From Spirochaetaceae bacterium (lineage in GTDB: Bacteria > Spirochaetota > Spirochaetia > DSM-27196 > Alkalispirochaetaceae), in NCBI GenBank assembly GCA_007695175.1, contig REEH01000143.1, forward strand, positions 69,152 to 133,151: a stretch of 64,000 nucleotides of DNA. Direction: 5' to 3'. This document shows, piece by piece, positions 10,862 through 39,202 of this stretch. Position numbers and translations under genes: made by a program. The notes under the pieces were generated by a model. That model was given only the letters and a program-made list of their open reading frames with translations. It was not told the origin of the DNA and searched no databases. How positions within the stretch are numbered: position 1 is the first letter of the stretch; each line of letters begins with the position of its first letter.

Positions 10862-10953
10862 CCCGCGGGATTGTACAGGGAATCCGGCCGCGGGGGAATC
10901 TTTCGGTTGTTCCCCACCGGGAGCCGTGGTACCCTTGAAAACGGGAGTTGCCA

Positions 10954-11937: not shown

Positions 11938-11962
11938 GAACGGATGGTGCGGGAGGTGAAAC

Positions 11963-13054: not shown

Positions 13055-14218
13055 TCAGCTCCACCGTCCGGGTATCGCCCCGTTGCAGCGTGAGCAGTGC
13101 CCATCCCGTATGTTGATCTCCTCGATTACGAAACCGAGACGCTTGATCGCGGTGGCTCCGCAGGAGGGGCAATAGGTGTTTTCTCCCTCGTGCCCCGTGA
13201 CACGGGCGACATACACGTAGTTGAGGCCCGCCTCCCGGGCCGCATCACGGGCACGATCGATCGTCGCCACCGGTGTGGGCGGGAGGTTGCTCAGCTTGTA
13301 GAGCGGGTAGAAGCGGGCCAGGTGAAGCGGCACGTCCGGACCGAGTTCGTCGTGGATCCACCGGCACATGCGGCGTATCATCGCGGTGTCGTCGTTCATG
13401 GTCGGGATCAGAAGATTGGTGATTTCCAGGTGAACACCGTTCTTTCCGAGCACTTTCAACGTATCCAGGACCGGTTGCAGCTCGCCCCCGCAGAGATTCC
13501 GGTAAAACTCCGGATCGAAGCTCTTCAAGTCCACATTCACCGCGTCCAGATTGTCCATCACCGCCGTGAGCGGCTCCCTGTTGATGTAGCCGCTGGTATG
13601 CAGAAGATTGTGCAGTCCGGCGCGGCGGGCACGTACACTCGTTTCCTGTACGTACTCCCAGAACGCTACCGGTTCACCAAAGGCATAGCTTACCGACTGG
13701 ACACCGGTGCTGCGCGCATGCTCCACCACATCCCGGGGCGGGAGGTGGTACGTATGGACCTCCTCCGGAGAAACAAGCGCCATATCCCAGACCTCACAGA
13801 AGGAGCACGACAGGGGGCAGCCGGCGGTGGAGATGGAGAGGGCCCGGGAACCGGGCAGAAAGTGGAAGAACGGCTTCCGTTCCACCGGATCCGACTGAAC
13901 GAGCGCGGGATTGCCGTAGGAGAGGGTATACCCGGTGCCGTTCTGGTTTGTCCGGACGCGGCAGCTTCCGCGTTCACCCGGCCCGATGCGGCACTCCCGC
14001 GGGCAGAGCAGGCACTGCACACCCTTGCGGGAGAGAGAACGGAACCACGGTGAGGGGTGTTTGCCCGTTACGCCCCGCGCCGTGGTCTGGGCATGCGTCG
14101 TGTGCAGGAGCCCCGGCGCTCCCAGGAGACCCGAAAGGCAGAGTGCCCCCGCACCGAATGCGCCGGCTTTCAGTATTGCCCGCCGTTGAAGATCGATCCC
14201 TTCTTTTCCCTTTTTCAT
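13055..14218 (-). CDS. Radical SAM enzyme, PflA-like paralog with TAT-like N-terminus and C-terminal CxxC...CxxC
   Basis: Start at MKKGKEGIDLQRRAILKAGAFGAGALCLSG (ATG 14218, ATGA overlap with the upstream stop). CLLCPRECRIG. AGCPLSCSFCEVWD. C-terminal CPSCG...CSRCNG. The listed N-terminal ORF extension overlaps the upstream gene in another frame. Confidence 0.75.
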   Translation of the reverse strand: MKKGKEGIDLQRRAILKAGAFGAGALCLSGLLGAPGLLHTTHAQTTARGVTGKHPSPWFRSLSRKGVQCLLCPRECRIGPGERGSCRVRTNQNGTGYTLSYGNPALVQSDPVERKPFFHFLPGSRALSISTAGCPLSCSFCEVWDMALVSPEEVHTYHLPPRDVVEHARSTGVQSVSYAFGEPVAFWEYVQETSVRARRAGLHNLLHTSGYINREPLTAVMDNLDAVNVDLKSFDPEFYRNLCGGELQPVLDTLKVLGKNGVHLEITNLLIPTMNDDTAMIRRMCRWIHDELGPDVPLHLARFYPLYKLSNLPPTPVATIDRARDAAREAGLNYVYVARVTGHEGENTYCPSCGATAIKRLGFVIEEINIRDGHCSRCNGAIPGRWS

Positions 14219-16638
14219 GGCCCGCTTCCTTTCTCCGATATCCTCAGTATACCATGGGATACGGCGTTTCCCGTAGCGGCGAGCATGCAGCACGCCACGA
14301 TTCCCAGCACGGGAGCCACCGCGAGTCCCGCAAGAAGCGATCCGAGACACGCCCCGAAAAGCTCCATGCCATATACGATTCCGGTCGTGCCCTCGGCGTT
14401 GCCCCTGATCCGGTGGTAGCAGGCCGTCGTGAGGGGGAAGTCGAAGCCGTTCAGAAATCCTGCCGAGAACGTGAGGGTGAAGAAGAAGCCCAGGAGAATC
14501 ATTGGTCTTTCGATCGTTGCGATAGGGGGGAGAGCGAGCCCGATAAGAAGCGCCCAGACCGCGATGATCAGCTGCACCCGACGGAGAACGAGGCGGCTTC
14601 CGGGATCCGGAACGAAGCGCCGGGCCGCCGTCGCGCCGAGAGCCAGCCCCACCATGAAGGCCGCTACGATCAGCCCGATCATCTCGTAGACGTATCCGTA
14701 AAAACTCTGGAAGGCGAAAAGAAGCGCGATCTGCAGCGCCATCGTGGAAAGGCCGGTGGTGAAAACCGCCACGAGAACGGCATACCGGTCGCTGCGCTTT
14801 CCGTCGCGTCGCTTGTCGCGCCCCCGGAGCAGGACCGCCGTGAGGAGAGCCAGGAGGATCGGCGGAATGATCCACCAGGGGCGGATACGGAGGATCCACG
14901 TAATCACTCTCCCCGGGGAATCCCGGGTCAGAGTACTCCAGTACGCCAGGGTATGCACGTATCCGATCGGTCGGAAGTCGGAATTGATAAAGTAACCTTC
15001 ATTGATCGGAGGCAGATCCTTCTCCATGCTTTCCTGCTCCGGTATGGTGGGAACCAGGAGCGGCACGGGCTCCGGCCCGTCCATGTGGGCCGATGGTGTC
15101 CGCCCGTGATTGCGAAGAATCCAGCCGAGCCGTCGGAGCGGGTCCTCCTCCAGGAGGAGCTGGAACTGGAATGGCGAGAAGGTGCTCTCCCGGATGCCCC
15201 GTTCGAGATAGCGCATTTGCAGGATCGATGGATCGGCGGTGGTTATCCCCGCACTTCCGGCGGCCACGAAGGTCAGGTGGCGCTGCCCCAGGGGCAGCAC
15301 GTGGTCAAAGACTCGTTTCAGGGTGTGATAGATGGTAGCGTTGCGGTTTGCCAGAGCGCGTCCACGCAGATCGGCGGCGGAGCCGACGCCGATCACCAGA
15401 ACGCCCCGCTCCTGGAGGCGCCGTGCCGCTTCCCGAAAAAACTCCTCCGTGTAGTAGCGGTTCAACACCGCCGTGAAGGGATCGGGTGTATCAATGATGA
15501 TGATGTCGTAGAGCTCCGCCTCGGAATCCGCACCGCCCCCTCCCGACTTGATAAAGAGGCGCCCGTCGCCATGGAGAAGACGCACCTCCCGCCGGTCCAG
15601 GGGTTCCGTCCTTGATCGGGGCAGGTGCTGTCGCGCCACCCTGGTCAGTACCGGATCGAGCTCAAGGTAATCCACCCGTTCCACCGGATGGGTCAGGATT
15701 TCGCGCAGAATGCCCCGCAGACCGCCTCCTACAAGCAGAATCCGTCGCGGCCGGGGATGCTGCGTCAGGGCCAGGTGCGCTGCGGTGATCGCCTCCTGTT
15801 CCTCCAGTTCCACCTCACCGGCGGAGAAAACCAGGTTGCCGCTCTGGAAGAAACTGTACTGGCCCTCCCGATGCGCGACGGAAACCGTTCCGTAGCGCGA
15901 CTGGTGGACCGCGAGGAGCTGGTGTTCCGGGCTGAAATACTTCCATTGCTGCTGGTGCGCCCACCCGTCGAAGGTGTCCAGAAAGGGGAGGGAGAGAATC
16001 AGGGTGGCGATCACGATCCAGAGCGGAATACGGCCGGTACGGGATGCCACGGTGAGCGAGGCCAGGGCCATCACGATACCTGCCAGAACCACCGCATGAA
16101 AGGAAGAGATGCGGTTCACCAGGAGGAGGGAGAAGAGCACCCCCCCCAGTGCGTTGCCCAGGGCCTCGGTGACGTAGGTCTTTCCCGCGCCGCCCTCGTT
16201 TTCCAGACCGTCCCGGAGCCGCCACGCCCGGGCGAGCAGAACAAAGAGCATTCCCAGGAGCACCCCGACCGGTGCGGTTACCAGGAAAACGGAGAGCGTC
16301 ATATCCGGTATGGAGAGATACGCTCCCGGCTGAACGGAGAAGAATGAGCGCAGTATCCGCACGAGGAAGAGCGTTACCGGCAGCAGTATCGGCAGGATCG
16401 TGCCGGTGAGCGCTATTGCCGGAGCGGGAGACGTGTCTCCGGTGAACCGGCTCGCCACGTATCCGGCCCCCACGCTGCCCAGACCGACCCACACCATCCA
16501 CGCTCCGAGAATGATTCCCATGGAGAGCTCGTTGCCGTGAAAGACGATCAGCAGTTCCCGCAGGAGTACGATCTGCCCGATCTGACCCACGATACCCAGG
16601 GAAAGTACGAGTGCCGGTGTAGCATGTGTCCTCTTCAT
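14215..16638 (-). CDS. Fused MFS-like membrane domain / spermidine synthase-like (aminopropyltransferase fold) protein
   Basis: 807 aa. N- and C-terminal polytopic membrane regions flank a SpeE-like core (ILLVGGGLRGILREI...YLELDP...DIIIIDTPDP...GVLVIG). Confidence 0.7.
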   Translation of the reverse strand: MKRTHATPALVLSLGIVGQIGQIVLLRELLIVFHGNELSMGIILGAWMVWVGLGSVGAGYVASRFTGDTSPAPAIALTGTILPILLPVTLFLVRILRSFFSVQPGAYLSIPDMTLSVFLVTAPVGVLLGMLFVLLARAWRLRDGLENEGGAGKTYVTEALGNALGGVLFSLLLVNRISSFHAVVLAGIVMALASLTVASRTGRIPLWIVIATLILSLPFLDTFDGWAHQQQWKYFSPEHQLLAVHQSRYGTVSVAHREGQYSFFQSGNLVFSAGEVELEEQEAITAAHLALTQHPRPRRILLVGGGLRGILREILTHPVERVDYLELDPVLTRVARQHLPRSRTEPLDRREVRLLHGDGRLFIKSGGGGADSEAELYDIIIIDTPDPFTAVLNRYYTEEFFREAARRLQERGVLVIGVGSAADLRGRALANRNATIYHTLKRVFDHVLPLGQRHLTFVAAGSAGITTADPSILQMRYLERGIRESTFSPFQFQLLLEEDPLRRLGWILRNHGRTPSAHMDGPEPVPLLVPTIPEQESMEKDLPPINEGYFINSDFRPIGYVHTLAYWSTLTRDSPGRVITWILRIRPWWIIPPILLALLTAVLLRGRDKRRDGKRSDRYAVLVAVFTTGLSTMALQIALLFAFQSFYGYVYEMIGLIVAAFMVGLALGATAARRFVPDPGSRLVLRRVQLIIAVWALLIGLALPPIATIERPMILLGFFFTLTFSAGFLNGFDFPLTTACYHRIRGNAEGTTGIVYGMELFGACLGSLLAGLAVAPVLGIVACCMLAATGNAVSHGILRISEKGSGP

Positions 16639-16723
16639 GCGTCCGTGGAACCGCCTCCACCCCCCACTGTAACGCTCCCGGTTTTTCCGGTCAATGCTCG
16701 GTACGACAGCTGCGACGGCGGTG

Positions 16724-16743
16724 GCCGCGGCCGCAGCCGCGGC
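16724..16743. other. Perfect GC hairpin GCCGCGGC-CGCA-GCCGCGGC abutting the mnhD-1 stop codon
   Basis: Read directly. No U-tract on either strand, so not called a terminator. Confidence 0.3.
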
Positions 16744-18276
16744 TTATCCGAAGACGACGAGCTGCAGGTAGATCATCTCCGTAAAGAAAAGCACCACGAT
16801 GTAGAGGAGTTCGTAGTTCAGATTACGGAAGAAAAAGCGCGTATCGAGACGGGAAAGAATTGACAGCCGGCGATACAGGGGACGGGCAAATACCAGGGCA
16901 CTCCCCATAACGGCCAGATCTATCAGGAAAGCAATGCCGGGCCGGCTGAGCGGGTAGGGGAAGGCAAGGTAATAGATCGCAAACATGGCAAGAAAGGTGA
17001 GGTAGAAGAGGTTGTTCTCCTTCTTCCGGACGATGCGATATCGGAACTTGAAGAACGCCCCCAGCACCAGAAACATCGAGAAGTAAACAACCAGGCGATA
17101 ACCCCCGAAGGACCCGACGAACTGGTACTTCAGTGCGTACGTCAGGGCGGGAAAGAATCCGGTGGTGAACAGAACGCCCAGACCACATATGGTGAGAGCT
17201 TTCCAGCTTCCCGCAACGCGCAGGTCGTCCTGGCGGGACTCGTCGTAGTCGAACTGGTCGTAGAGGAGGAAGAGGAGGCACTTGTACAGACCGTGAACGA
17301 CGATGTACGTAAAGGCTACCTCGTACATGCGGTAGGAGAGCATCAGCCCGATAAAACCGATCGTGAAGACCGTGGTTCCCGCGATGACGCGTTTGAGATG
17401 GGGCTCGAAGAAGAGAAAGAGTGCCGGCAAGAGCATGGTCGTCACCGAGAGAATACGCAGAAAATCGAAGATCCCCGTAAACCCCAGCAGGTCCGCCGGT
17501 ACAAGAACGAGGTAGTAGAGCCCGTAAATACCTGTGAAGATCGTAAAGGCCGAAAGAAATGCGGAGATGAGGGAGTTGGTGGCGGTATGGCACGTGCTGA
17601 CCCAGCTTGAGACGGGGAAAAACGCACCTTTCACAAAGAATGCGGTGCTGAACAGCAGCAGCACCAGGTGCAGGTTGTATTCACTGAAGGTCATTATCTG
17701 ATCCACGAAGGAGAACCCGAAGTAGGAACCGGAGGCGTAGAGCAGGATCACACCACCGAGGAAAAGCGCCGAACTTGAAGCGCCGATGATCATGTACTTG
17801 ATTGAGGCGTAATACTTGCCCTTGATACCGATCAGGACGTAGGCAGCCATGATCATTACCTCGTAGAAGACGTAGAAAGTAAAGACGTCGCCCGTGACCA
17901 GAAGCCCACTGCAGCCGGCCAGGTAAAAGAGGAGGATCATGCGGACGTACTGCGTCTTGAAGAGGTGAAGGCGGAAAAGGGTAAAGAGAAGCGGTGTCAG
18001 GTAAGCCGCGAGGAAGTAGGTTTTGTGGGCATCAAAGGCAAATACTATTGAGTAGTCCCATTCGGAAATGGCTGTTACAAAGACACCCTCGTAACCGATG
18101 AAGGATGCGATAATCACTGCCCCCGAGGCCAACTGGGCCAGGACTACCGCTACGATGACGGCCGAGGAGATGTCACGGCGCAGAAGGTACTTGGCGGTGA
18201 GGATAAACACATTCCCCAGGAGCGGGAGAACGGGGAAGAAGAGGAGCAGTGTCCGCACCAGGTATTCAGCGTTCAT
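16744..18276 (-). CDS. mnhD: Mrp/Mbh antiporter subunit D (NuoN/MbhH-like proton-translocating subunit), cluster 1
   Basis: 510 aa, ~14 TM, complex-I subunit 2/4/5 family pattern. Confidence 0.8.
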   Translation of the reverse strand: MNAEYLVRTLLLFFPVLPLLGNVFILTAKYLLRRDISSAVIVAVVLAQLASGAVIIASFIGYEGVFVTAISEWDYSIVFAFDAHKTYFLAAYLTPLLFTLFRLHLFKTQYVRMILLFYLAGCSGLLVTGDVFTFYVFYEVMIMAAYVLIGIKGKYYASIKYMIIGASSSALFLGGVILLYASGSYFGFSFVDQIMTFSEYNLHLVLLLFSTAFFVKGAFFPVSSWVSTCHTATNSLISAFLSAFTIFTGIYGLYYLVLVPADLLGFTGIFDFLRILSVTTMLLPALFLFFEPHLKRVIAGTTVFTIGFIGLMLSYRMYEVAFTYIVVHGLYKCLLFLLYDQFDYDESRQDDLRVAGSWKALTICGLGVLFTTGFFPALTYALKYQFVGSFGGYRLVVYFSMFLVLGAFFKFRYRIVRKKENNLFYLTFLAMFAIYYLAFPYPLSRPGIAFLIDLAVMGSALVFARPLYRRLSILSRLDTRFFFRNLNYELLYIVVLFFTEMIYLQLVVFG

Positions 18277-18577
18277 GTATCTCCGATATCTCTATCGTCC
18301 CGTGGTGTTGAAAATACTTCACGACAAAGGCGAGGGCGAGCGCGTTGAAGCAGACCCCTATTACGATCGCCGTAAGCATCAGGGCCTGCGGTACGGGATC
18401 CACGAATGTGGACTCCGGCACGCTGAGAATCGGAGCGGCGGCATGCGCCTGGAACCCGGTGGTGAGAAAAGACATCACCACGATACCCTGAACGACCGTG
18501 AGGCTCATGATTTTCCTGATCAGGTTGTCACAGACCACCAGCCCGTAGAGACCGACAAAGAGAATCAGCAGCGTCAT
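18266..18577 (-). CDS. mnhC: Mrp antiporter subunit C (NuoK-like), cluster 1
   Basis: 103 aa, 3 TM, MrpC-like; overlaps mnhD by 11 nt. Confidence 0.8.
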   Translation of the reverse strand: MTLLILFVGLYGLVVCDNLIRKIMSLTVVQGIVVMSFLTTGFQAHAAAPILSVPESTFVDPVPQALMLTAIVIGVCFNALALAFVVKYFQHHGTIEISEIHER

Positions 18578-18861
18578 GAGGTGCTCCGGATATACTTCAT
18601 ACCGAAGACGGTGAGGATCACCACGTTCACCTCCAGGAAAGTATCAAAAATCCGCGGTCCCAGGTACACCACCGCCACCATGTTCTCAATGTTCATGTGT
18701 TCCGCCAGCCCCCGGAAATCGGGAACGACCTGGCTGAAAACGAGATCGATTCCCCGCATGTAGGTCGCCACGTACACCAGCGATCCCAGCAGTATCACCG
18801 CCACGAGGGAATCAAAGATGACCTTGCGTCGTTTTTTCCTGTCAGTCCCGGTATGGTTCAT
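18574..18861 (-). CDS. Mrp subunit B-like small membrane protein (MbhF-like), cluster 1
   Basis: NMVAVVYLGPRIFDTFLEVNVVILTV matches the MrpB signature (NVV-x-IL-x-x-R-x-FDT-x-GE). 4-nt overlap with mnhC. Confidence 0.6.
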   Translation of the reverse strand: MNHTGTDRKKRRKVIFDSLVAVILLGSLVYVATYMRGIDLVFSQVVPDFRGLAEHMNIENMVAVVYLGPRIFDTFLEVNVVILTVFGMKYIRSTS

Positions 18862-19273
18862 CGCCTTTCCATTCTATCAGGGATCGGTAGATCAGGATCA
18901 GGGACCCCGAAACCTCGCTGTAGATAGCGAGGTTGAGGAGCCAATAGAAGACGTTTGAGAACATGGGGCTTCTCGTGGTGACCCCGTAGAGACCGGAGAA
19001 AAAGAAGTCCGTCAGGAAAAACCCGACGATGAGCGCGGTAAAGAGAAAGATAATGCCCAGGAACTCGATCTTCATATAGAAGGAGTTCTCAAAAATACGG
19101 CGACTGAAGACCATTTCCACCACGATTACCACCGTTCCGAAGACAACCCCCGCCTGGAAGCCGCCGCCGGGGAAGTTTGCTCCGTAGGAAGTCAGGTAGA
19201 ACCCGAACATCGCTATGAAAGGAAAGAGCATTCCCACGGTGTTTTTCAGTATGGCCGATTCACGAAGATCCAT
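18842..19273 (-). CDS. MnhB-domain membrane protein (MbhE-like, GGGFQGG motif), cluster 1
   Basis: 143 aa with FPGGGFQAGVVFG. In cluster 2 this region is fused with the MrpB-signature region in one gene. Confidence 0.65.
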   Translation of the reverse strand: MDLRESAILKNTVGMLFPFIAMFGFYLTSYGANFPGGGFQAGVVFGTVVIVVEMVFSRRIFENSFYMKIEFLGIIFLFTALIVGFFLTDFFFSGLYGVTTRSPMFSNVFYWLLNLAIYSEVSGSLILIYRSLIEWKGDEPYRD

Positions 19274-19629
19274 TACTTCCGTACCTCGTACTCCGCACCG
19301 ATGTAGATCGGGCAGGGAAAGGCCATCAGCGTACCCACCTCCGGTTGCGTCAGATCAATACCGTCCCGTCTGAGAGCGGCGTTCAGGGAGAATATGGTCT
19401 CCCGGTCAGGAACGACCGAGATTATCGTTTTGTTGAAAAGGATATCCTGCCCGAAGAGCGCGGTGACCTCGCTGAGAATTGGTGCGGTCTCGGTCGCCAC
19501 GTTTTCCACACCCTCACCGTCCAGGACGGAGGTGTCGAAAAGTCCCAGTTCCACCAGGGTCGATACAACGGGTTTCGCGTAGGCCTCGCTTTTCAGGATG
19601 ATGATCACCACATGCATGGAGTTGTCCAT
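19273..19629 (-). CDS. Hypothetical P-II-like (GlnB-fold) protein embedded in Mrp cluster 1
   Basis: MHVVIIILKSEAYAKPVVSTLVELGLFDTSVLDGEGV has the beta-alpha-beta spacing of P-II/SbtB-like proteins. Start uncertain (ATG 19629 or 19617). 1-nt overlap with the downstream MnhB start. Confidence 0.4.
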   Translation of the reverse strand: MDNSMHVVIIILKSEAYAKPVVSTLVELGLFDTSVLDGEGVENVATETAPILSEVTALFGQDILFNKTIISVVPDRETIFSLNAALRRDGIDLTQPEVGTLMAFPCPIYIGAEYEVRK

Positions 19630-19636
19630 CGTTGTA

Positions 19637-20095
19637 CTAATCCTCCCGGGGCTCTTCAAATGCACTGATCAGATCCCGCACCGCCTGGGGATCGCGCTTG
19701 AGGAAGACCTCCTCCGCATCGGGTCGCGAGAGGAATCGGGAAAGGCGGGCCATCAGGCTGAGGTACGTGCGGGACATCGAGTCCGGTACGATGATGCAGA
19801 GTACCGTATGGGCCGTTTCCCCCCGGCGATATCGTACGGACTTTGACAGGAGACCGACGCTGATACAGATTTCCGGGATCTCCGACGTGCGGGTATGTAC
19901 GAGAAAGAAACCGTTCCCCAGGTTCACCTCTTTCTTCCGGCTGAAAGCGGTGATATCGCTGTATATGCGCTCGTGAAAGCTTTCCGGTTCCTCCGGCAGG
20001 GCAGCGGCAATGAGTATACGCAGAATCTCCTCCCGACGGTCCGTCTCTACCGGTATTATTCTATCCGCCGGAATGTATTCCAAAAGGCTTTTCAT
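19637..20095 (-). CDS. PTS EIIA type-2 domain protein (Fru/Ntr class) embedded in Mrp cluster 1
   Basis: 152 aa. GNGFFLVHTRTSEI places a His at the position of the phosphorylatable His of EIIA-2 domains. AAGGAGA RBS. ATGA overlap with the upstream DUF4040 stop. Confidence 0.65.
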   Translation of the reverse strand: MKSLLEYIPADRIIPVETDRREEILRILIAAALPEEPESFHERIYSDITAFSRKKEVNLGNGFFLVHTRTSEIPEICISVGLLSKSVRYRRGETAHTVLCIIVPDSMSRTYLSLMARLSRFLSRPDAEEVFLKRDPQAVRDLISAFEEPRED

Positions 20096-20346
20096 TGATC
20101 ATTCTCCTTGCTGGTTTTCCGAATTGCTACCAGAAAAACGATTGTGGTGAGGCCCGTTCCCAGAGCCGCCTCGGTAATCGCCACGTCCGGTGCGTTGAGT
20201 ACAAAGTAGTTCAGAGCGAGAAACATGCTGAAAACGCTTAGCCCAAGCAGCGACATGATTATGCTGCGGGAGAAGACGACCACCACGGTGGCGGCAAGCA
20301 GAAAAACATGAAGCAGCTGGTCGAGCGTAAGGGGTAACTGGAGCAT
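20092..20346 (-). CDS. DUF4040-like small membrane protein (MnhB N-terminal domain, MbhD-like), cluster 1
   Basis: 84 aa from the internal ATG of ORF 20092..20694; 3 TM; the listed upstream part of that ORF overlaps mnhG in another frame. Confidence 0.55.
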   Translation of the reverse strand: MLQLPLTLDQLLHVFLLAATVVVVFSRSIIMSLLGLSVFSMFLALNYFVLNAPDVAITEAALGTGLTTIVFLVAIRKTSKENDQ

Positions 20347-20348
20347 CA

Positions 20349-20639
20349 CTACTGTCCCGCCCGATATTGACGGTACTTGATATAGGACAGGCCGAGAATA
20401 TGAGCGATCAGCGGTGAGGTTATTATGGTAATCGCCGCGAGTACGATGACCTTGATGATAAAACCGATACCATCCACCAGGAGAAGCAACCCCAGGAATA
20501 CCGTCAGGGACCCGGTGGCTCCACACTTGGTGCCGGCGTGAAAACGGGTAAGAGTATCGGGGAGAATGATCATTCCCAGGTTTCCCCAGAAGACGATGAA
20601 GAGACCAAGTGAAGCGAGAACGTACCCTATAATAGTCAT
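20349..20639 (-). CDS. mnhG: Mrp antiporter subunit G, cluster 1
   Basis: 96 aa; LTRFHAGTKCGATGSLTV matches the MrpG RxHAxTKxxTxG signature. Confidence 0.8.
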   Translation of the reverse strand: MTIIGYVLASLGLFIVFWGNLGMIILPDTLTRFHAGTKCGATGSLTVFLGLLLLVDGIGFIIKVIVLAAITIITSPLIAHILGLSYIKYRQYRAGQ

Positions 20640-20902
20640 AACGATACCATTTCCTCCGAGCGGTCCGGTCCGACGAGACGTACATAGGCGACAATCTCCG
20701 TGAAGGAGAGCAGCGCGTAAATCATCGCGACATCCATGTAGAAAACGTGATTGTAATGAACGGCGTAGAACGCCATCAGAAGCGTGACGTGGGCTGACAC
20801 CATATTAAGAGCAAGCAGTCTATCGTAGAGATTTGGGCCGATGATGAGGCGCACGATACTCATGGCGGTGAGGGCGTAGGTAACGTAAATAAGCACTATC
20901 AT
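20636..20902 (-). CDS. mnhF: Mrp antiporter subunit F, cluster 1
   Basis: 88 aa, 3 TM; N-terminus IGPNLYDRLLALN... is MrpF-like. Confidence 0.7.
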   Translation of the reverse strand: MIVLIYVTYALTAMSIVRLIIGPNLYDRLLALNMVSAHVTLLMAFYAVHYNHVFYMDVAMIYALLSFTEIVAYVRLVGPDRSEEMVSL

Positions 20903-21444
20903 CCGAAGATCCTTTCCAGAATATCCTCGATGAGGAAGGTGATCATGCGGGATGCTCTCTTGCTGTGCCGCGTTTCCACGTTGAACCAGTGCACGTATAT
21001 GGTGCTGCCTTCCATCCAGAGCGAAAGGGTTCCCGGCACGATTGATATGGTATTGCAGAGAACGGCGCGCCCGAAGGGGGAGCGCAGGCGCGTCCGTATC
21101 TTGACTATGCCCGGACGATAGTCTCCGGTAAGCATGCGTCGGACGATATCGATGATGGCGATGTAGCTGAGATAGAGGATGACCGCCACGTATATGATAA
21201 CCAGATCGAGACGGAGAAAGATCCGTGCCGTAGGACGCAGGTGCTGCTCGTAAAAGAGTCCAAAGGAGTACAATGCGGAGGCGAAGGAAAGCACCACCGC
21301 CACGGAGAGGGAGAGGGGATTAAGATCCTGCGCCATCAGGATCCAGAAGATGAAACACAGCAGGAAAACGGTGAGAATGCGCATAATGATGAGCCGCTTT
21401 TCCTTTTCCCGTTGCTGGGCTATCGGTGCGATGGTGTTTCTCAT
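20899..21444 (-). CDS. mnhE: Mrp antiporter subunit E, cluster 1
   Basis: 181 aa; N-terminal TM pair plus ISIVPGTLSL (MrpE TLTPGT-like). First gene of the cluster. Confidence 0.75.
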   Translation of the reverse strand: MRNTIAPIAQQREKEKRLIIMRILTVFLLCFIFWILMAQDLNPLSLSVAVVLSFASALYSFGLFYEQHLRPTARIFLRLDLVIIYVAVILYLSYIAIIDIVRRMLTGDYRPGIVKIRTRLRSPFGRAVLCNTISIVPGTLSLWMEGSTIYVHWFNVETRHSKRASRMITFLIEDILERIFG

Positions 21445-21526
21445 TACGTACTCACTCAGCTATATCTTTATACCATGTTCCCTGCCGCATTGACAGACCT
21501 CCCGGTCGTCGGGAGATACTTATACC

Positions 21527-21973
21527 ATGCTGTTTACGGAACTGGACGAATCGCTGGTGGCGATAAATCTTCCCGCCAGGACACGGGACGAGGTGATAGA
21601 TCAGCTTCTCGGTATGCTGGACAGGACCGGAAAAGTAAGGGACCTCGATCTTGCCCGGACGGACATTGAGCGCAGCGAGCAGTTGATGGCATTCGGTATG
21701 CAGCACGGGATCGCGATTCCCCACGCCAAGACGGAGGCGGTGGAAGAACTGCTGGCTTGTTTTGCCGTTACCGAAAACCCGGTGGATTTCTCCGGCATTG
21801 ACGGCACACCGAGCCGGATATTCATCATGACGCTCTCACCGCCCGACCAGATTGGTCCCCATATCCGCTTCCTCAGCGAGATCGGTCGCCTTCTGAAGAA
21901 CCGGAAGGTGCGCAAGGCGATACTTGGCGCCGAGACTCCGGAACAGCTGCTGCGGATAATCAAGGGCCGGTGA
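21527..21973 (+). CDS. ptsN: PTS EIIA(Ntr)-like protein (PtsN family)
   Basis: 148 aa; HGIAIPHAKT with the canonical phospho-His context of EIIA-2; sits between the two Mrp clusters. Confidence 0.8.
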   Translation: MLFTELDESLVAINLPARTRDEVIDQLLGMLDRTGKVRDLDLARTDIERSEQLMAFGMQHGIAIPHAKTEAVEELLACFAVTENPVDFSGIDGTPSRIFIMTLSPPDQIGPHIRFLSEIGRLLKNRKVRKAILGAETPEQLLRIIKGR

Positions 21974-21975
21974 CG

Positions 21976-23454
21976 CTACCGGGGCCAGAGCAGACCCGCC
22001 GTCACCGCGAGAACCAGCAGGAAGAGCAGTACCTGAGCCTGGGGACCAAGGTTGTGGAGAGTCCGGGCTCCTCGGCGGAGACGGGTGCCCGGAGCGTGTG
22101 CTTTCCCGGGAAAGGGCTTTGCGCGGGTGTCCGTCGCGTGGACGCCTCCCGCGCCTGTCCCCGCCCGTCCCACCGTCGTCGCCGGTCTGGTGAGACGTTT
22201 TTTCAGGACCATCCATAGTAGAGCCGAAGCGGCGAGCGGAAGCAGCGCCGAAAGGAGCGATGAGGGCGTGAAGAATGCGCGGCGGGGAACACCGGGAACC
22301 GCGTGGGGAAAGAGACCGATAAGAACCGTGATACCCGCCACAAGTACGAGGGGGACCATGGAGGGAGCGCGGGTTTTCGACGGATCGGAACTGGGAGGAT
22401 TGGCCCTGTTGAAAAACAGGAGGTGGGTGAACTTGATGAAGGATAGCCCGGTTCCGACCGATGCGGCGTACAGAAGGTATGTGACCAGCGGTTGAGCCTG
22501 GGATGCTTCCTTGAGAAGGTACTTGCTCGCGTAGCCGCTCGTAAAAGGCACGCCGGAAATCGCCGCGGCCCCTATGATACCGCACAGGAGAAGAAGTGGA
22601 CGTCGCGATCCGAGACCGCCCATCCTCGTCAGGTCCTCATGACCCCGGTGATGTACCGCCTGCGCAGCCACCAGCAGGAGCAGAGCCTTGTAGAGCGTGT
22701 GTGTTACCAGATGAAACATCCCGGCCGTAGCAGCCATTGCGGAAAACCCCGCGGCGAGACCGATGCCGGCAACCATGTATCCCACCTGGCTCACGATGTG
22801 GTAACTGAGCAACTTGCGTGCCTCATGCTGCAGCAGAGCGAGAATCACCGCCCCTACCGCTGTACCCGCGCCCAGCCAGGCGAGCACCGGAAATCCCGCC
22901 GGGGAGATCCATATCAGCTGCGCCGCCGTCAGGACGCCCACCTTGGTGGTGTAGACGGAAAGGAGCGGCGTGATTGAGAGCTCGACCGAGGGATATGCTT
23001 GGGTAAGCCAGAAGTGGACCGGCATCGTCGCCGTCTTTATGAGGATCGCCGCTACCATGAAGGGTTGCGCCGAGGGCACAAGAATCCCCGTCACCAGGGA
23101 CCCAGTCTCGCCAAAGTGCAGGAGGGCGGCGAAGAAGAAGAAGACTCCGCCCGTTACCTGGATGACCAGGTACCTCAGAGAGATCCGGCGACCCCGGGCT
23201 GTTCCCGTGCCGCGTATGAGGATGAATGCGGAAAAGGCGAGTACCTCCCACGCTACAAGCAGCGTCATGATATCCCGTGCGAGGATCGCGAGAACCCCGG
23301 CGGCGACGTGAACCGCCGCGGGAAAGGCGTACCGTCCCTCCTTCTGCCGGAGGATATTGAGGAATAGAATCACCCCGAGGAAGAGAAAGACAAGAAAAGC
23401 GGAGAAGTATATGCCCTCCGGTATGGCGAGTGCGAAGGGAAAGAGCGTGTTCAC
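21976..23454 (-). CDS. Second MnhD/NuoL-family proton-translocating subunit, cluster 2
   Basis: 492 aa from GTG 23454 (GTGA overlap with the upstream stop). ~14 TM. The 400-aa N-terminal extension in the ORF track overlaps the upstream mnhD in another frame and is rejected. Confidence 0.65.
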   Translation of the reverse strand: MNTLFPFALAIPEGIYFSAFLVFLFLGVILFLNILRQKEGRYAFPAAVHVAAGVLAILARDIMTLLVAWEVLAFSAFILIRGTGTARGRRISLRYLVIQVTGGVFFFFAALLHFGETGSLVTGILVPSAQPFMVAAILIKTATMPVHFWLTQAYPSVELSITPLLSVYTTKVGVLTAAQLIWISPAGFPVLAWLGAGTAVGAVILALLQHEARKLLSYHIVSQVGYMVAGIGLAAGFSAMAATAGMFHLVTHTLYKALLLLVAAQAVHHRGHEDLTRMGGLGSRRPLLLLCGIIGAAAISGVPFTSGYASKYLLKEASQAQPLVTYLLYAASVGTGLSFIKFTHLLFFNRANPPSSDPSKTRAPSMVPLVLVAGITVLIGLFPHAVPGVPRRAFFTPSSLLSALLPLAASALLWMVLKKRLTRPATTVGRAGTGAGGVHATDTRAKPFPGKAHAPGTRLRRGARTLHNLGPQAQVLLFLLVLAVTAGLLWPR

Positions 23455-24968
23455 CGGCCCCTCCCGATGAGAGCGGGCCCGACGAAATCCGCCTGGTCGA
23501 CAAGCCCCTCCGCCGCTCTCAGGAGGAGGGACCGCACCTGCACGTCCCGGGTACCCGCCATTACGGCAGCAACCGCAAGAGCAAGGACAACAGCTGTCTG
23601 CAGGCGGGGTCGCAACGAGAGCGGATGTGGCGCCGGGAAAGAATCCGGTGGATCGCGCCGTGTAGCGATGAGAAAGAAGCGTCCGTAGTAGACGAGGGAA
23701 ATGACCGTACCCGCCCCGATCACGAGGACCGGAAGAAGGGCCTGCTGCGCCATGGCTACAAACCACTTGGATGCGAAGCCGCCCGTTGGAGGTATGCCGA
23801 TGATGGCCAGGGCGGCGAGAGAGAAGGCAATGATGCTGCCCGGTGCACGCCAGGCAATTCCGCCGAGATCCATAATCCTGGAGGACCGGGAAAGGTGTAT
23901 GAGGCGGTGTCCCGACCAGAACAGGGCGCTCTTCATCAAGGTGTGCATGCCGGTATGAAAGAGAGCGGCCGCGACCGCGTACACGGCGGCGCTCCCCCCG
24001 ATCCGTCCCGCCGCGGCGACGCCGAGCAGAATATACCCGACGTGAGCGATACTGGAAAACGCGAGCATCCGCACGAGGTTCCTCTCGATCATCGCCATCG
24101 AGTGACCTGTCAGAATGTTGACCATCCCCATGACGAGGAGTATGGAGTACACCCCCGGCAGCACAACCGGGGCCTGCAGGGGAAACCAGAGGAGACGCAG
24201 CAGCGCGTAGACATGGATTTTCAGACCGAAGGCGGAAAGGATTGCCGCCACGGTGGTGCCCGCGGCGTGATACGTCCGGGGCTGCCAGAAGTGCATCGGC
24301 ACCAGGCCAATCTTGATACCAAAGGAAACGATTATGGCAGCGGTTGCCATTCCGTGCAGGTGTGCGGGCAGGTCCGGGGCCGCCTGCGCAACAAGGGGCA
24401 TGGCGACGGTACCGGTGGCGACGTACAGAACGAGGACGGCGAAGAGCAGCAAGGCACCGCTTATCGTGGCCGCCATCAGGGCCACAAATCCGGCTACGGC
24501 ACTGCCGGGATGGCGCTTGCGTGCGATCAGCCCGATCGAGCAGACCGTCGCGAGCTCCACGAAGATAAACAGGTTGAAAAGATCCGCCGTGACGGTTATC
24601 CCCGACAGGGCCGCAAAGAAAAGGGCGATCAGCGCCGCCGATTTCCTCGCCCACTCGGAGCGATCCCCGCTCTCGATCCGGACAAGCGCCGAAGCAAGAT
24701 GGCCGATAGCCAGGAGCAGCAGAAAGAACGCGGAGAAACTATCTACCATCAACGAGATTCCGACCGGAGCGATCCACTCACCAACGGAATAGAGAAGGGC
24801 CGGGCCGGTCATGCCCCGGTACGCCGCGGCCACCAGCGTGGTGCTGTGAGCGGTTGCCACCAGCAGTGCCGCAGTGGACTTGAACGCCGGTCTGACCGTA
24901 TCCACCAGGGAGATGAGAAAGGCCCCGGCAACAGGTATCACCACAACCAGAACGGGGAGATGATTCAC
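23451..24968 (-). CDS. mnhD: Mrp antiporter subunit D (NuoM/N-like), cluster 2
   Basis: 505 aa polytopic; complex-I antiporter-like subunit pattern incl. GLVPMHFW... and HAG. Confidence 0.8.
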   Translation of the reverse strand: MNHLPVLVVVIPVAGAFLISLVDTVRPAFKSTAALLVATAHSTTLVAAAYRGMTGPALLYSVGEWIAPVGISLMVDSFSAFFLLLLAIGHLASALVRIESGDRSEWARKSAALIALFFAALSGITVTADLFNLFIFVELATVCSIGLIARKRHPGSAVAGFVALMAATISGALLLFAVLVLYVATGTVAMPLVAQAAPDLPAHLHGMATAAIIVSFGIKIGLVPMHFWQPRTYHAAGTTVAAILSAFGLKIHVYALLRLLWFPLQAPVVLPGVYSILLVMGMVNILTGHSMAMIERNLVRMLAFSSIAHVGYILLGVAAAGRIGGSAAVYAVAAALFHTGMHTLMKSALFWSGHRLIHLSRSSRIMDLGGIAWRAPGSIIAFSLAALAIIGIPPTGGFASKWFVAMAQQALLPVLVIGAGTVISLVYYGRFFLIATRRDPPDSFPAPHPLSLRPRLQTAVVLALAVAAVMAGTRDVQVRSLLLRAAEGLVDQADFVGPALIGRGR

Positions 24969-25315
24969 GAATCCTCCCTGGTGGCAATGAACAACCGGGC
25001 GATATCAGTTGTCCCGTAGTGACGATAAACGGCGACTGTCAGGGCAAGGGCAATCGCCAGAATGCCGGCTCCGATCACGATCGCTGTAAGAGCCAGCGCA
25101 TGGGGGAGCGGATCCACGAATCGGAGCGCCTCAAAACCTGCGATAGGAGCCGCTCCGCCGGGAACATAAGCGGCCGCCACAAGGGCCATCACAAAGGAAG
25201 AATCCATGATGCTGATGGAGATACAGATTTTGATCATATCCCGCTGGGTGAGCATGCCGTACAGGCCGATGGCGAAGACACCCGCGGCGGTCAGGTACGC
25301 AGCGGTCTGCATCAT
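24965..25315 (-). CDS. mnhC: Mrp antiporter subunit C, cluster 2
   Basis: 116 aa, 3 TM, NuoK/MrpC-like. Confidence 0.8.
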   Translation of the reverse strand: MMQTAAYLTAAGVFAIGLYGMLTQRDMIKICISISIMDSSFVMALVAAAYVPGGAAPIAGFEALRFVDPLPHALALTAIVIGAGILAIALALTVAVYRHYGTTDIARLFIATREDS

Positions 25316-26067
25316 CGGCGCTTCTCCGGAACGTTCTCCGCTTCGTGTCCCGCCAGGTGCACATAGATCGAACTGAGACCGGCGGCGACCTTCATACCGA
25401 CGAGAAGATTGAGCAGGGGAATTACCCCGCCCGAAGCCAGCGTACCCGCCGTGCCCCGGGGAAAGCCCGCCGCAACGTTGGCAAGGTACGCGGAACCCTG
25501 GAAAATCCCCACGAACCCGATTCCTACCAGGCCGATAGCCGCTCCGTACTCGGACAGGGCAAGAATCCTGTGCGGAATCACCTCTTCTCCGAAACGGTCT
25601 CCAAAAGCGACGTGGATCAGTATCACCAGGACGGCGAGACTGACACCGCCCTGGAAACCTCCGCCCGGCGACAGGTGTCCGTGAAAGATCACGAAGAGCG
25701 GAAAGATGAAAAAGAGCGGCAACAGCGCGGAGAGCTGCCGCCGTGATAGGAGACCCATCGTGCGGTTGGAGGGGGAACCGGGTTTTCCGAGAATGGCCGC
25801 CGCTACCGCCACGGACGCGAAGATCACCGTCGCCTCACCGAGCGTGTCGAAGGCCCGGTAATCCATGAGAATCGCCGTGACAACGTTGATGCTGCCTGTT
25901 TCGGCCACGCTCCGGGCGGTGTAGGGTTCCTCCATCTGTGTCGGTATCGTTTGTGCTCGGTGACGGCCCGCGTCCAGGAGAAGCACGACGAAACCGAGGG
26001 AGAGGAGCAGGCACAGAAAACCCGCGGTGAGGCGCGTCAGAAACACCCGGATCACCGGGCTCTCCAT
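25312..26067 (-). CDS. mnhB: Mrp antiporter subunit B (fused MrpB-signature + GGGFQGG domains), cluster 2
   Basis: NVVTAILMDYRAFDTLGEATVIF and LSPGGGFQGGV in one 251-aa protein. Confidence 0.8.
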   Translation of the reverse strand: MESPVIRVFLTRLTAGFLCLLLSLGFVVLLLDAGRHRAQTIPTQMEEPYTARSVAETGSINVVTAILMDYRAFDTLGEATVIFASVAVAAAILGKPGSPSNRTMGLLSRRQLSALLPLFFIFPLFVIFHGHLSPGGGFQGGVSLAVLVILIHVAFGDRFGEEVIPHRILALSEYGAAIGLVGIGFVGIFQGSAYLANVAAGFPRGTAGTLASGGVIPLLNLLVGMKVAAGLSSIYVHLAGHEAENVPEKRR

Positions 26068-26309
26068 GTTCGCTTGCGCGTTTTGCTTATGGCGGTAACG
26101 AAGAGCGCCGTCATAAGACCGGCGCCGATTACCGCTTCCGCCATCGCTACGTCGACGGCCTGGAGAAAGGTGAACTTGACGGTAGTAAGAACGCTGAAGA
26201 CGGAAAGAATGATCACTGCGTTCAGATGACCCCGCACATGGATTGCCGCGAAAGCGCTGACCAGGATTGCGGCGAGTATGAGATAGAACGCGATATCAAG
26301 TGCCATCAT
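26052..26309 (-). CDS. DUF4040-like small membrane protein (MnhB N-terminal domain), cluster 2
   Basis: 85 aa, 3 TM; paralog of 20092..20346. Confidence 0.6.
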   Translation of the reverse strand: MMALDIAFYLILAAILVSAFAAIHVRGHLNAVIILSVFSVLTTVKFTFLQAVDVAMAEAVIGAGLMTALFVTAISKTRKRTWRAR

Positions 26310-26676
26310 CGTCCTGTGATCCCGTATCCTGCAGAGTGTCTACCGCTTCGCCGTACTCATCAACCACAAGGTGACGGCGCGCGCGCTCGATGCGATAGGA
26401 CGCCCGGGCGATGGCCTGTGTTGAAATCGGGTTGGTCACCATCAGGAAGACGGCCACGATGATCATGCGCAGTGCCGTGACGTAGTCAGGGGCACGCATG
26501 GCCGAGCCGAGCATGAGCAGACCCGCACCGATTGTAAGTCCCTTGGTGCCGGCATGGAGGCGTGTATAGGCGTCGGGAAAACGCATGATACCCAGAGTCA
26601 TTGCCACGGCAAAGAGCGTCCCCGTAACGAGAAAGAGCGTGCTGATACCGGAAAGGAGGGCCGGAAGCTGTATCAT
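26296..26676 (-). CDS. mnhG: Mrp antiporter subunit G, cluster 2
   Basis: YTRLHAGTKGLTIGAGL signature. Confidence 0.8.
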   Translation of the reverse strand: MIQLPALLSGISTLFLVTGTLFAVAMTLGIMRFPDAYTRLHAGTKGLTIGAGLLMLGSAMRAPDYVTALRMIIVAVFLMVTNPISTQAIARASYRIERARRHLVVDEYGEAVDTLQDTGSQDDDGT

Positions 26677-26933
26677 GAGTCTTCGGAGCCTCCCTGCTCC
26701 AGATACTTGCTGATGATCATCAGATCCGCGAAGAGCAGCAGGGAATAGACCATGGCGATATCAATAAAGATGGTACGCTCAAACACCAGGCTCAGAAGAA
26801 CGAGAATCACCGTCATGAGCACCCCGATTGCGTCCGCGGCGGCTATCCTGTCGAGGAGGGTGGGGCCACGTAATACACGCACGAGGCAGATAGCGCTGAA
26901 GGCGGTCAGAAGAGCAACAAGGGCGTTTATCAT
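26673..26933 (-). CDS. mnhF: Mrp antiporter subunit F, cluster 2
   Basis: 86 aa, 3 TM; LRGPTLLDRIAAADAIGV is MrpF-like. Confidence 0.7.
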   Translation of the reverse strand: MINALVALLTAFSAICLVRVLRGPTLLDRIAAADAIGVLMTVILVLLSLVFERTIFIDIAMVYSLLLFADLMIISKYLEQGGSEDS

Positions 26934-27445
26934 CCCGAGATTCTCCGGACCCAGGGACGCATGCCGCTGGTGATTTGTCCGTCTATGTCCCGGGCTTCAT
27001 AATCGGAAACGTCCATCCAGTGTATGTACAGGGTATCGGAAGCGGGATCGTAGTCCATTGTGAGCGTGCCGGGAGTGAGCGTTATCAGGTTTGCGAGTAT
27101 CGTCGTGGCCCCGATCGTCGGGAGTCCCCCCGTTGTCTTCACGATTCCCGGCCAGAAGGAAACGCCCGGGGTGAACGCGAAGCGCGCGATGGCGATGCCG
27201 GAAAGGAAAATCTTTCCGAGAAAGAGAGGCAGGAAGACCAGCGTGTATACGATCCGGCCGGGATGGAACCGTTTGCGACCCTGTGGCTCATGTCCCGGCA
27301 GCCACCTGCCCTGAATGCTCCGGCGGAAGAGGATCATAGCAACCAGGATCACCATCCCCCCGAGCAGCGCCGAGAGCGGGTCCGCTGACCCGGCAAAGAC
27401 GATCCATGCCCCGAAGAGAGCGATCGCGTACGTGGCGATTCCCAT
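26930..27445 (-). CDS. mnhE: Mrp antiporter subunit E, cluster 2
   Basis: 171 aa from the internal ATG 27445; NLITLTPGTLTMD matches the MrpE signature. The upstream part of ORF 26930..28009 overlaps acs and is rejected. Confidence 0.75.
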   Translation of the reverse strand: MGIATYAIALFGAWIVFAGSADPLSALLGGMVILVAMILFRRSIQGRWLPGHEPQGRKRFHPGRIVYTLVFLPLFLGKIFLSGIAIARFAFTPGVSFWPGIVKTTGGLPTIGATTILANLITLTPGTLTMDYDPASDTLYIHWMDVSDYEARDIDGQITSGMRPWVRRISG

Positions 27446-38807: not shown

Positions 38808-39202
38808 CACTGACCTCCCTGGATGTCGGCGGCGGGGCGGTCGACGATGTGTCCGTCCAGCAGGCGCCCTTCCTTGAGATGAACCTGCACGATTTCCCGT
38901 GCTACGGCATCGTCCACCCGGCCGTAGATAACGGTGGGCATGCCCTCTTTGTGTACTTCCACGATGGGTTCCATGCTCTCCAGACCCATGCTGCCGGTCT
39001 GGCGCACAGGTATATCCGTGAGGTTCTGCTCTTCCAGCGCTTCCACGAGCGCCGCCAATGTCTTTTTTGCACCTGCTGCGATTCCGCTCGTACCCATGGA
39101 TACGACCAGCCGGGTCGAGCTGCCGCCGGACTCGCGCAGTCCCATCTCAAACTGTTTCTTGTCCCGAACTTTTCTCAGTTCGTCCAGTGTCATCCTGGGC
39201 AT
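38807..39202 (-). CDS. Thioredoxin-like ferredoxin-fold protein lacking Cys ligands (NuoE-C-terminal-like)
   Basis: 131 aa, no cysteine at all; position and size match the extra 2Fe-2S module of bifurcating enzymes, but ligands are absent. Confidence 0.4.
   Translation of the reverse strand: MPRMTLDELRKVRDKKQFEMGLRESGGSSTRLVVSMGTSGIAAGAKKTLAALVEALEEQNLTDIPVRQTGSMGLESMEPIVEVHKEGMPTVIYGRVDDAVAREIVQVHLKEGRLLDGHIVDRPAADIQGGQ

Follow-up and report, generated by a model that had tools for sequence, protein, structure and literature searches.

In E. coli, the unphosphorylated form of PtsN, an EIIA protein of the phosphotransferase system (PTS), binds the cytosolic CorC domain of YcgO, a K+/H+ antiporter of the cation/proton antiporter (CPA) family CPA1, and inhibits it (PMC11808508; bioRxiv 10.64898/2026.08.14.744764; review PMC13104625). 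P-II and P-II-like proteins plug transporters encoded alongside them, as in the GlnK-AmtB and SbtB-SbtA pairs (PMC10710835), and the transporter LacS carries a fused EIIA(Glc)-like domain that is phosphorylated by HPr (PMC10710835). Among these are precedents for every ingredient of the locus reported here: control of a CPA1 antiporter by EIIA-Ntr, P-II-like proteins encoded next to transporters, and the EIIA domain that LacS carries. The locus is a ten-gene Mrp/Mbh-type antiporter operon, cluster 1, in a stretch of 64,000 nucleotides from a Spirochaetaceae bacterium (contig REEH01000143.1), referred to throughout as the window. Embedded among its membrane subunits are genes for a 152-amino-acid (aa) EIIA_2 protein and a 118-aa P-II-like protein. 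From sequence comparison and analogy, we think it probable that these two proteins form a dedicated cytoplasmic regulatory pair for the predicted Mrp/Mbh-type cation/proton antiporter of cluster 1. The arrangement is apparently undescribed. A full-text literature search, with most subscription journals outside its coverage, returned no EIIA or P-II-like gene inside an Mrp operon, no P-II-like subfamily dedicated to cation/proton antiporters, no EIIA/P-II-like pairing, and no protein regulator whose gene accompanies those of an Mrp or CPA antiporter; an earlier sequence-only reading of the window had likewise not recognized the arrangement as described.

Cluster 1 consists of ten closely packed genes on the minus strand at 16744-21444, as read from the open reading frame (ORF) list and Pfam matches. 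In the direction of transcription they are:

20899-21444, minus strand: MnhE/MrpE-type subunit, first gene of cluster 1 (PF01899, E 1.3e-23)
20636-20902, minus strand: MrpF/PhaF-type subunit, overlapping MnhE by 4 nt (PF04066 on the gene of the same length and position in L104, an independent assembly of the same organism)
20349-20639, minus strand: MnhG/PhaG-type subunit (PF03334, E 4.4e-15)
20092-20346, minus strand: MbhD (DUF4040)-type subunit, 84 aa, its stop overlapping the EIIA start as ATGA (PF13244, E 5.5e-19)
19637-20095, minus strand: embedded divergent PTS EIIA_2, 152 aa (PF00359, 43.6 bits, E 3.7e-11)
19273-19629, minus strand: 118-aa divergent P-II-like protein; a conserved insert of 25 residues (40-64) occupies the T-loop position
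18842-19273, minus strand: MnhB-domain subunit, 143 aa, with a TAATG junction to the P-II-like gene (PF04039, E 6.7e-16)
18574-18861, minus strand: 95-aa membrane protein, possibly MbhE-like or the N-terminal part of subunit B (weak NCBIfam matches, E 4e-4)
18266-18577, minus strand: MnhC/NuoK-like subunit (PF00420, E 1.9e-18)
16744-18276, minus strand: MnhD/NuoN-like antiporter-type subunit, the sole one in cluster 1 (PF00361, E 5.9e-24)

The MrpE, F, G, B, C and D families are all present in this one operon (PF01899, PF04066, PF03334, PF04039, PF00420 and PF00361, respectively). The Pfam scan of cluster 1 found a single PF00361 protein and no second antiporter-like subunit to complete a pair of MrpA and MrpD; the NCBIfam matches of that protein are of the MrpD/NuoN type, all under their cut-offs. 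The 95-aa protein has no Pfam match and weak NCBIfam matches to the N-terminal part of "antiporter subunit B" models, and it is kept at the same position in all relatives. With one PF00361 protein plus MbhD and the 95-aa protein, cluster 1 is, by its predicted gene content, Mbh-like in layout.

The genes of cluster 1 are joined by overlaps of 4, 4, 4, 1, 20, 4 and 11 nt and by gaps of 2 and 7 nt. The sequence-only reading had placed the two soluble ORFs between the DUF4040 and MnhB subunits, which coordinates and Pfam matches bear out, and had both of them stitched in by overlaps, which is correct for the outer junctions (ATGA between MbhD and EIIA; TAATG between the 118-aa ORF and MnhB) but not for the inner one, since the EIIA gene and the 118-aa ORF are separated by a gap of 7 nt, with a Shine-Dalgarno-like GGGAGGA ahead of the ATG at 19629. 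A mechanical ORF list gives a longer, 130-aa version of the 118-aa ORF that begins at a GTG; the N termini of the orthologs point to the ATG at 19629, or perhaps to that at 19617, as the probable start. That the two ORFs might be spurious products of a high-GC genome was considered and rejected, based on codon GC pattern, protein conservation, and independent gene calls: both have coding-type codon GC (0.69-0.73 at the third position, GC3, vs 0.38-0.41 at the second, GC2), and both are called identically by independent gene callers in two other assemblies of the same organism. The whole arrangement was also found again in two independent assemblies. A promoter and terminator scan over 16400-22100 gave counts close to those of shuffled sequence and no internal promoter or terminator of note, and an Rfam scan of the whole window gave no match.

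The embedded 152-aa protein, which contains GNGFFLVHTRTSEI, matches NCBI [quoted passage not shown] with 100% identity and passes the gathering score of PF00359 (43.6 bits against 27 bits). Its putative phospho-acceptor His lies in GFFLVHTR, which aligns with the G(V/I)AIPHGR of solved PtsN proteins and places the residue at the position of E. coli PtsN His73. This His, on which the sequence-only reading had staked the identity of the protein, is invariant in 9/9 Mrp-embedded EIIA orthologs, within the motif G-[KN]-G-F-x-L-x-H-[TA]-R. In all aligned embedded EIIAs, Tyr takes the place of the second active-site His (E. coli His120). Against the NCBIfam PtsN equivalog TIGR01419 the protein scores 15.5 bits, with a cut-off of 138.7 bits; the cut-off of the other PtsN equivalog, NF008145, is 221 bits. 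Judged by these alignments, the embedded protein is an EIIA_2 protein with an intact phospho-site and not PtsN in the strict sense.

The 118-aa protein is the more difficult of the two to place. Pfam and NCBIfam run directly on it gave no match, and a profile of its close family gave only a chance match against PDB sequences. A word-indexed search found 13 close relatives, and an exhaustive search with a hidden Markov model (HMM) of the family found 98 representatives at E <=1e-3, of which 62 were aligned with the window protein (63 sequences). Scanned singly, 25 of the 63 aligned sequences match Pfam P-II (PF00543) at E <=0.1, the best at 9.3e-8, the window protein being among those with no match; some relatives, with scores such as 33.7 and 32.2 bits, exceed the PF00543 gathering score of 25 bits. 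In a wider search, many family members proved to carry precomputed PF00543 matches and the name "P-II family nitrogen regulator". The family profile aligns with solved P-II proteins over positions 13-107 at E 0.0045, with the B-loop and beta4 in register, and hhalign against E. coli GlnB gives E 1e-4 at a probability of only 56%. A predicted structure (predicted local distance difference test, 90) has its top matches in the P-II superfamily, namely, DUF3240, SbtB and CPII, and among the structural neighbors of the model are proteins that sense nucleotides, bicarbonate or c-di-AMP (SbtB, CPII, and the PstA-like 3m05). The model has the double beta-alpha-beta ferredoxin-like fold with a long beta2-beta3 loop. 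The P-II-like spacing first noticed in the bare sequence thus has the family's PF00543 matches and the profile alignment behind it, and the 118-aa protein appears, from sequence and model together, to fall in the P-II superfamily as a noncanonical member.

How noncanonical can be seen from the motifs. The B-loop TGxxGDGKIF is not conserved: the window protein reads QPEVGTLMAF in the aligned segment QPEVGTLMAFPCPIYIG, where one Gly and the Phe are kept. Nor is the C-terminal RxR of canonical P-II conserved, and the Tyr51/Ser49 modification site of the T-loop is absent, with GVENVATETAPILSEVTALFGQDIL at the T-loop position and no Y-[KR]-G-[AS]-[AE]-Y motif. In its place lies the 25-residue insert (residues 40-64), predicted to form two short helices. 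Within the close clade the insert matches the beta-core in conservation (0.87 vs 0.73-0.89), and its family motif reads P-I-L-S-E for the Mrp clade and, for the family at large, P-I-F-A-G-[LF]. A neighbor-joining tree groups the Mrp-linked P-II-like proteins in a single clade next to the CPA-linked ones and at a long distance from GlnB.

The insertion of the two genes is a conserved feature of related Mrp loci, as the sequence-only reading would have it. L001-L012 and L015-L017, contigs and metagenome-assembled genomes (MAGs) of soda-lake sediments and mats that are mostly labeled Spirochaeta, Spirochaetaceae or Spirochaetales, share the order E-F-G-MbhD-EIIA-PII-B-x-C-D; two Mrp-linked relatives are binned elsewhere, one in Latescibacterota and one in Sumerlaeota. 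Across the Mrp loci the P-II-like protein ranges from 87% down to ~37-42% identity to that of the window (37% for P0020 in L017, 42% for L016), with the insert still in the same position. The flanks of these relatives vary, with acetyl-CoA synthetase, 2-hydroxyacid dehydrogenase or desulfoferrodoxin genes; since the flanking genes differ, the conserved unit is the Mrp cluster itself. One relative, L009, carries a second Mrp cluster. The close homologs of cluster 1 in MAGs binned as Latescibacterota (L009) and Sumerlaeota (L014) could reflect either horizontal movement among soda-lake bacteria or mis-binning.

The linkage extends to a second and unrelated type of antiporter. Distant members of the P-II-like family adjoin PF00999 (Na_H_Exchanger) and EIIA_2 genes: among the Pfam-labeled examples, L018 has a helix-turn-helix (HTH)-EIIA fusion, an EIIA, a CPA gene and the P-II-like gene, and L020 has the P-II-like and CPA genes and no EIIA. 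In L019 and L021 the P-II-like gene adjoins an EIIA gene, and L102 (Aminicenantes) and L103 have the order EIIA-PII-CPA-CPA. A metagenome scan with a sub-alignment built around the PIFAG motif gave 80 loci, which were annotated by HMMs built from the Pfam-labeled examples; 43 of these, with at least 2.2 kb upstream, are informative. A CPA gene is present in 41/43, an EIIA gene in 37/43 (86%), and both in 36/43, as a same-strand array; 1 locus has neither. Five hand-picked representatives looked up singly (P0020, P0030, P0036, P0045 and P0059) agree with the metagenome pattern. The genome-contig scan covered the close family, and named genomes for the CPA-linked clade are few. The CPA proteins of these modules are weakly CPA2-like and, at ~400 aa, too short for a fused C-terminal cytosolic regulatory domain. 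Finally, P0081 is a natural fusion of an EIIA_2 domain (6-150) and a P-II-like domain (166-262). Its contig is short, with chorismate synthase downstream and no antiporter visible, and the fusion thus supports the likely partnership of EIIA and P-II-like proteins and not the antiporter linkage. Taken together, the pairing of P-II-like protein and antiporter in 41/43 loci, the EIIA in 37/43, and the single fusion make the P-II-like protein the constant partner and EIIA a frequent second partner.

Two further observations concern the CPA-type modules. Many of them open with an HTH-EIIA fusion of ~230 aa, in which an excisionase/MerR-like HTH is joined to EIIA_2, with a second EIIA gene after it (L018 589-1287; L023 3558-4244; also L025, L027-L029, L033, L052, L077, L079, L082 and L101); the domain composition suggests that these fusions may be a transcriptional branch of the same signaling system. 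In L069 (967-5117) and L072 (1030-5295) two pairs of P-II-like and CPA genes stand divergently on the same contig, and the minus-strand P-II-like proteins of these loci form the deepest branch of the family tree.

The reading we prefer is that the pair is an antiporter-associated module that can pass from one type of antiporter to another, and that the embedded copy is most likely a posttranslational regulator of the antiporter among whose genes it lies, as sequence and analogy suggest. Made in step with the membrane subunits of cluster 1, the pair would have the P-II-like protein as its core: the insert at the T-loop position would dock on the cytoplasmic face of the antiporter and lock or release it, much as GlnK acts on AmtB and SbtB on SbtA. 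EIIA would be the input: a PTS-type phosphorelay would determine whether its His is phosphorylated, and this in turn whether the pair engages the antiporter; the parallel would be unphosphorylated PtsN binding the cytosolic domain of YcgO and inhibiting K+/H+ antiport. With short CPA proteins and with Mrp, the separate P-II-like protein may act as the adaptor that the CorC domain is in YcgO. In a haloalkaliphile such a device would probably serve for fast tuning of Na+(K+)/H+ exchange to the energy or carbon-nitrogen state, and in an organism with two Mrp clusters a switchable cluster 1 would match that exchange to energy or carbon/nitrogen status.

What was observed in favor of this regulatory reading is the domain and fold identities, the conserved His, the position in the operon, the linkage to two unrelated antiporter types, and one gene fusion. 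Physical binding, the partner that contacts the membrane complex, the sign of regulation, the ligand and the phosphodonor belong to the inferred part of the model. The sequence-only reading had proposed direct phospho- or nucleotide-dependent regulation of the antiporter; the case for direct regulation is strengthened by the P-II-like and EIIA genes found beside CPA genes in dozens of metagenomic loci, but nucleotide dependence is a conjecture, the canonical ATP-binding B-loop not being conserved.

Several points weigh against a regulatory pair. The embedded EIIA is divergent: its PF00359 score is 43.6 bits, it has Tyr where the second His would be, and its rate of evolution exceeds that of the membrane subunits. 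The P-II-like protein has lost the B-loop and the C-terminal RxR of canonical P-II, and that of the window has no Pfam P-II match. EIIA is missing from several CPA loci and, among the Mrp relatives, from L013, which reads MbhD-PII-MnhB. The 80 metagenomic loci are not independent samples, all of them having been drawn from a single sub-clade with a single peptide pattern. No HPr was found in the 64-kb window by tblastn with two HPr queries; EI was not searched for. Lastly, there is the matter of geometry. CPA antiporters are typically dimers, and Mrp complexes are hetero-oligomers. Neither would fit the trimer-on-trimer geometry of the known P-II/transporter pairs (PMC10710835).

Of the other explanations, the one that survives best is that the P-II-like protein alone is a ligand gate, responding to ATP/ADP/AMP, c-di-AMP, cAMP, 2-oxoglutarate or bicarbonate, with EIIA optional, separate or degenerate and not acting via His phosphorylation. 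It would account for the steadier pairing of the antiporter with the P-II-like protein than with EIIA (41/43 vs 37/43), for the loci that have no EIIA (L013, L020, L036 and L057), and for the divergence of the embedded EIIA and the loss of its second active-site His; the sensors of nucleotides, bicarbonate and c-di-AMP among the structural neighbors (SbtB, CPII, PstA-like 3m05) also speak for it. Against it, the phospho-acceptor His is kept in 9/9 embedded orthologs, an EIIA is present in 86% of the informative loci and is fused once to the P-II-like domain, and the canonical P-II nucleotide-binding motifs are missing. We consider this explanation unlikely.

A second alternative, quite unlikely in our view, is that both proteins are nonsignaling structural or assembly subunits, a cytoplasmic cap or chaperone of an Mbh-like Mrp complex with a single antiporter subunit, built from degenerate EIIA and P-II folds. 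The mid-operon position and translational coupling do suggest stoichiometric production, the nucleotide-binding motifs of the P-II-like protein are lost and the EIIA is divergent, and the EIIA fold occurs elsewhere as a nonphosphorylated cytoplasmic domain (P0081 has a weak Band_3_cyto match). But the same pair stands beside ~400-aa, single-gene CPA antiporters, which need no cap; the tandem cluster 2 of the window, described below, and most Mrp clusters work without it; and the His is conserved.

It is also conceivable, if highly unlikely, that the pair acts on some other target, such as transcription, K+ uptake, or carbon and nitrogen metabolism, and is merely co-expressed with the antiporter, to which it does not bind. 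PtsN and P-II are, after all, multi-target regulators (PMC13104625; PMC10710835), and the HTH-EIIA fusions with which CPA-type operons often begin suggest a transcriptional branch. Such a reading does not readily explain why the pair is linked, across phyla, to both CPA and Mrp, antiporters of unrelated architecture, and this linkage favors the antiporter as the target; moreover, the embedded proteins contain no DNA-binding domain, and the flanking genes are not conserved. That the 118-aa ORF is a generic ferredoxin-like (beta-alpha-beta)x2 protein whose likeness to P-II is convergent, as the missing direct Pfam match and the 56% hhalign probability against GlnB might suggest, is scarcely credible, given that its HMM family grades continuously into sequences that pass PF00543 (33.7 and 32.2 bits vs 25) and are named "P-II family nitrogen regulator", and that its profile aligns with solved P-II proteins over positions 13-107 with the B-loop and beta4 in register.

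If the embedded pair is indeed a regulator of the antiporter, a broader proposal can be made, which we advance tentatively. It is possible that this P-II-like subfamily, usually accompanied by EIIA_2, is a portable posttranslational switch for cation/proton antiporters, recruited to CPA2-like exchangers in many phyla and to Mbh-like Mrp complexes in soda-lake spirochetes, and that in the Mrp case the pair has become near-stoichiometric cytoplasmic subunits.

Upstream of cluster 1 lie a second EIIA gene, in divergent orientation, and a second antiporter cluster:

21445-21526, no strand: divergent intergenic region of 82 nt between mnhE and the PtsN-like gene, presumed promoter region
21527-21973, plus strand: stand-alone PtsN-like EIIA_2, 148 aa, with HGIAIPHA (PF00359, 96.5 bits, E 1.8e-27)
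21976-27445, minus strand: second Mrp/Mbh-like cluster (cluster 2), E-F-G-MbhD-MbhE+MnhB-C-D-D', without EIIA or P-II-like insert (Pfam and gene calls)

The 148-aa protein was first taken for a canonical PtsN encoded divergently upstream. The gene, its position and its HGIAIPHA are as read, and PtsN proteins are its best relatives in the PDB (E 7e-12); it also has the second active-site His (E. coli His120), in GPHIRFL. At 47.5 and 42 bits, however, it falls under the NCBIfam PtsN cut-offs, and its adjacency to the Mrp cluster is not conserved: such a neighbor was seen in the organism of the window and in L009 and is absent from the other relatives with enough flank, and is thus lineage-specific. 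In L009 the gene (52% identical; 5696-6139, plus strand) lies upstream of mnhE on the same strand as both Mrp clusters, while in the window it is antisense. Against the EIIAs of the CPA/P-II-like modules the PtsN-like protein scores 105 bits and the embedded EIIA 32 bits, which makes the former by far their nearer relative. A promoter scan found no consensus sigma-70 promoter in the 82-nt intergenic region. An invertible element around the PtsN-like gene was considered and rejected, the inverted-repeat arms being <=13 nt and consistent with chance.

Cluster 2, itself complete, stands in tandem with cluster 1 and provides an internal comparison, an Mrp/Mbh-like cluster without the insert. Its MbhE and MnhB are fused (251 aa), it has two PF00361 subunits, and beyond it lies an acetyl-CoA synthetase gene. 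The MbhE-like piece comes before MnhB in cluster 2 and may come after it, as the 95-aa protein, in cluster 1. In relatives L005-L008 the acetyl-CoA synthetase gene directly adjoins cluster 1, so that cluster 2 and the PtsN-like gene look like an insertion here or a deletion there. The GC content of cluster 1 is 0.54-0.57 (positions 16001-22000), below that of its flanks and of the equally membrane-rich cluster 2 (0.60-0.63). Immediately downstream of cluster 1, at 13055-16638 on the minus strand, are genes for a polytopic membrane protein of 807 aa that has a spermidine-synthase domain (PF01564) and for a radical-SAM protein, followed at 10948-13054 on the plus strand by a second radical-SAM protein and an aldo/keto reductase; this neighborhood (10948-16638) is not common to the relatives of cluster 1. 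Farther away, 34351-41136 encodes a 959-aa NuoG-like/molybdopterin formate-dehydrogenase-type protein with NuoF-like and NuoE-like subunits (minus strand) and MoeA (plus strand), a set with the look of a soluble, NAD-linked module for formate dehydrogenase.

Alkaliphily, salt tolerance and pH homeostasis all depend heavily on Mrp antiporters, which also share ancestry with the membrane arm of complex I and with the Mbh/Mbx hydrogenases. A conserved EIIA/P-II-like pair in an Mrp operon offers a concrete, testable handle on Mrp regulation, and its reach is broadened by the many uncultured lineages in which such a pair accompanies CPA-type exchangers. If the broader proposal of a portable switch is true, this would be the first known protein regulator of any Mrp-type complex, and a P-II-type regulator whose targets, CPA exchangers and Mrp complexes, are non-trimeric as far as known. 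The pair would also extend PTS-type phosphorelay control of ion homeostasis, recently shown for PtsN and YcgO in E. coli. Annotation would be affected at once, since these proteins are currently labeled "hypothetical protein" or "nitrogen regulatory protein P-II" in the databases.

Among the known systems, PtsN-YcgO resembles the proposal in that a cation/proton antiporter is controlled through direct contact, on its cytoplasmic side, with a free-standing EIIA_2 protein whose His can be phosphorylated, and the divergent 148-aa EIIA of the window has PtsN as its best solved relatives. Unlike the present case, E. coli ptsN is unlinked to ycgO and its product binds a transporter-fused CorC domain; here the EIIA gene is part of the antiporter operon and its product has a separate P-II-like protein as a partner, the predicted target is an Mrp/Mbh-type complex of several subunits or, for the CPA-linked sister clade, a ~400-aa CPA2-like protein, and neither EIIA of the window reaches the NCBIfam PtsN cut-off. 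LacS shares with the proposal an EIIA-type domain dedicated to one secondary transporter, whose activity it modulates via His phosphorylation. It differs in being a sugar transporter, with an EIIA of the Glc type instead of EIIA_2, fused instead of separate, and with no P-II-like partner.

GlnK-AmtB and SbtB-SbtA likewise have a small (beta-alpha-beta)x2 protein of the P-II fold, with a long beta2-beta3 loop, encoded beside a membrane transporter. Here, by contrast, the putative target is a cation/proton antiporter in place of a trimeric channel or symporter, the ATP-binding B-loop of canonical P-II has not been kept, a conserved and predicted two-helix insert (P-I-L-S-E or P-I-F-A-G) replaces the flexible T-loop, and EIIA accompanies the P-II-like protein. 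The genes of CPII, the carboxysome-associated protein of Thiomonas (PDB 5d4l), adjoin DabAB-type CO2 uptake genes, DabB being an MrpD/NuoL-like subunit; this would be a precedent for a P-II-like protein adjoining an Mrp-type membrane subunit. CPII nevertheless belongs to another sequence family (17% identity to the 118-aa protein), has no EIIA partner, and comes from a carbon-concentrating context, not from a full Mrp E-F-G-B-C-D cluster. Finally, compared with Mrp and with the membrane module of Mbh/Mbx (MbhA-H order), cluster 1 has its families in Mbh-like order with one antiporter-like subunit. It lacks a hydrogenase or redox module and a second antiporter subunit of the MrpA type, and it has two soluble signaling-type proteins between MbhD and MnhB.

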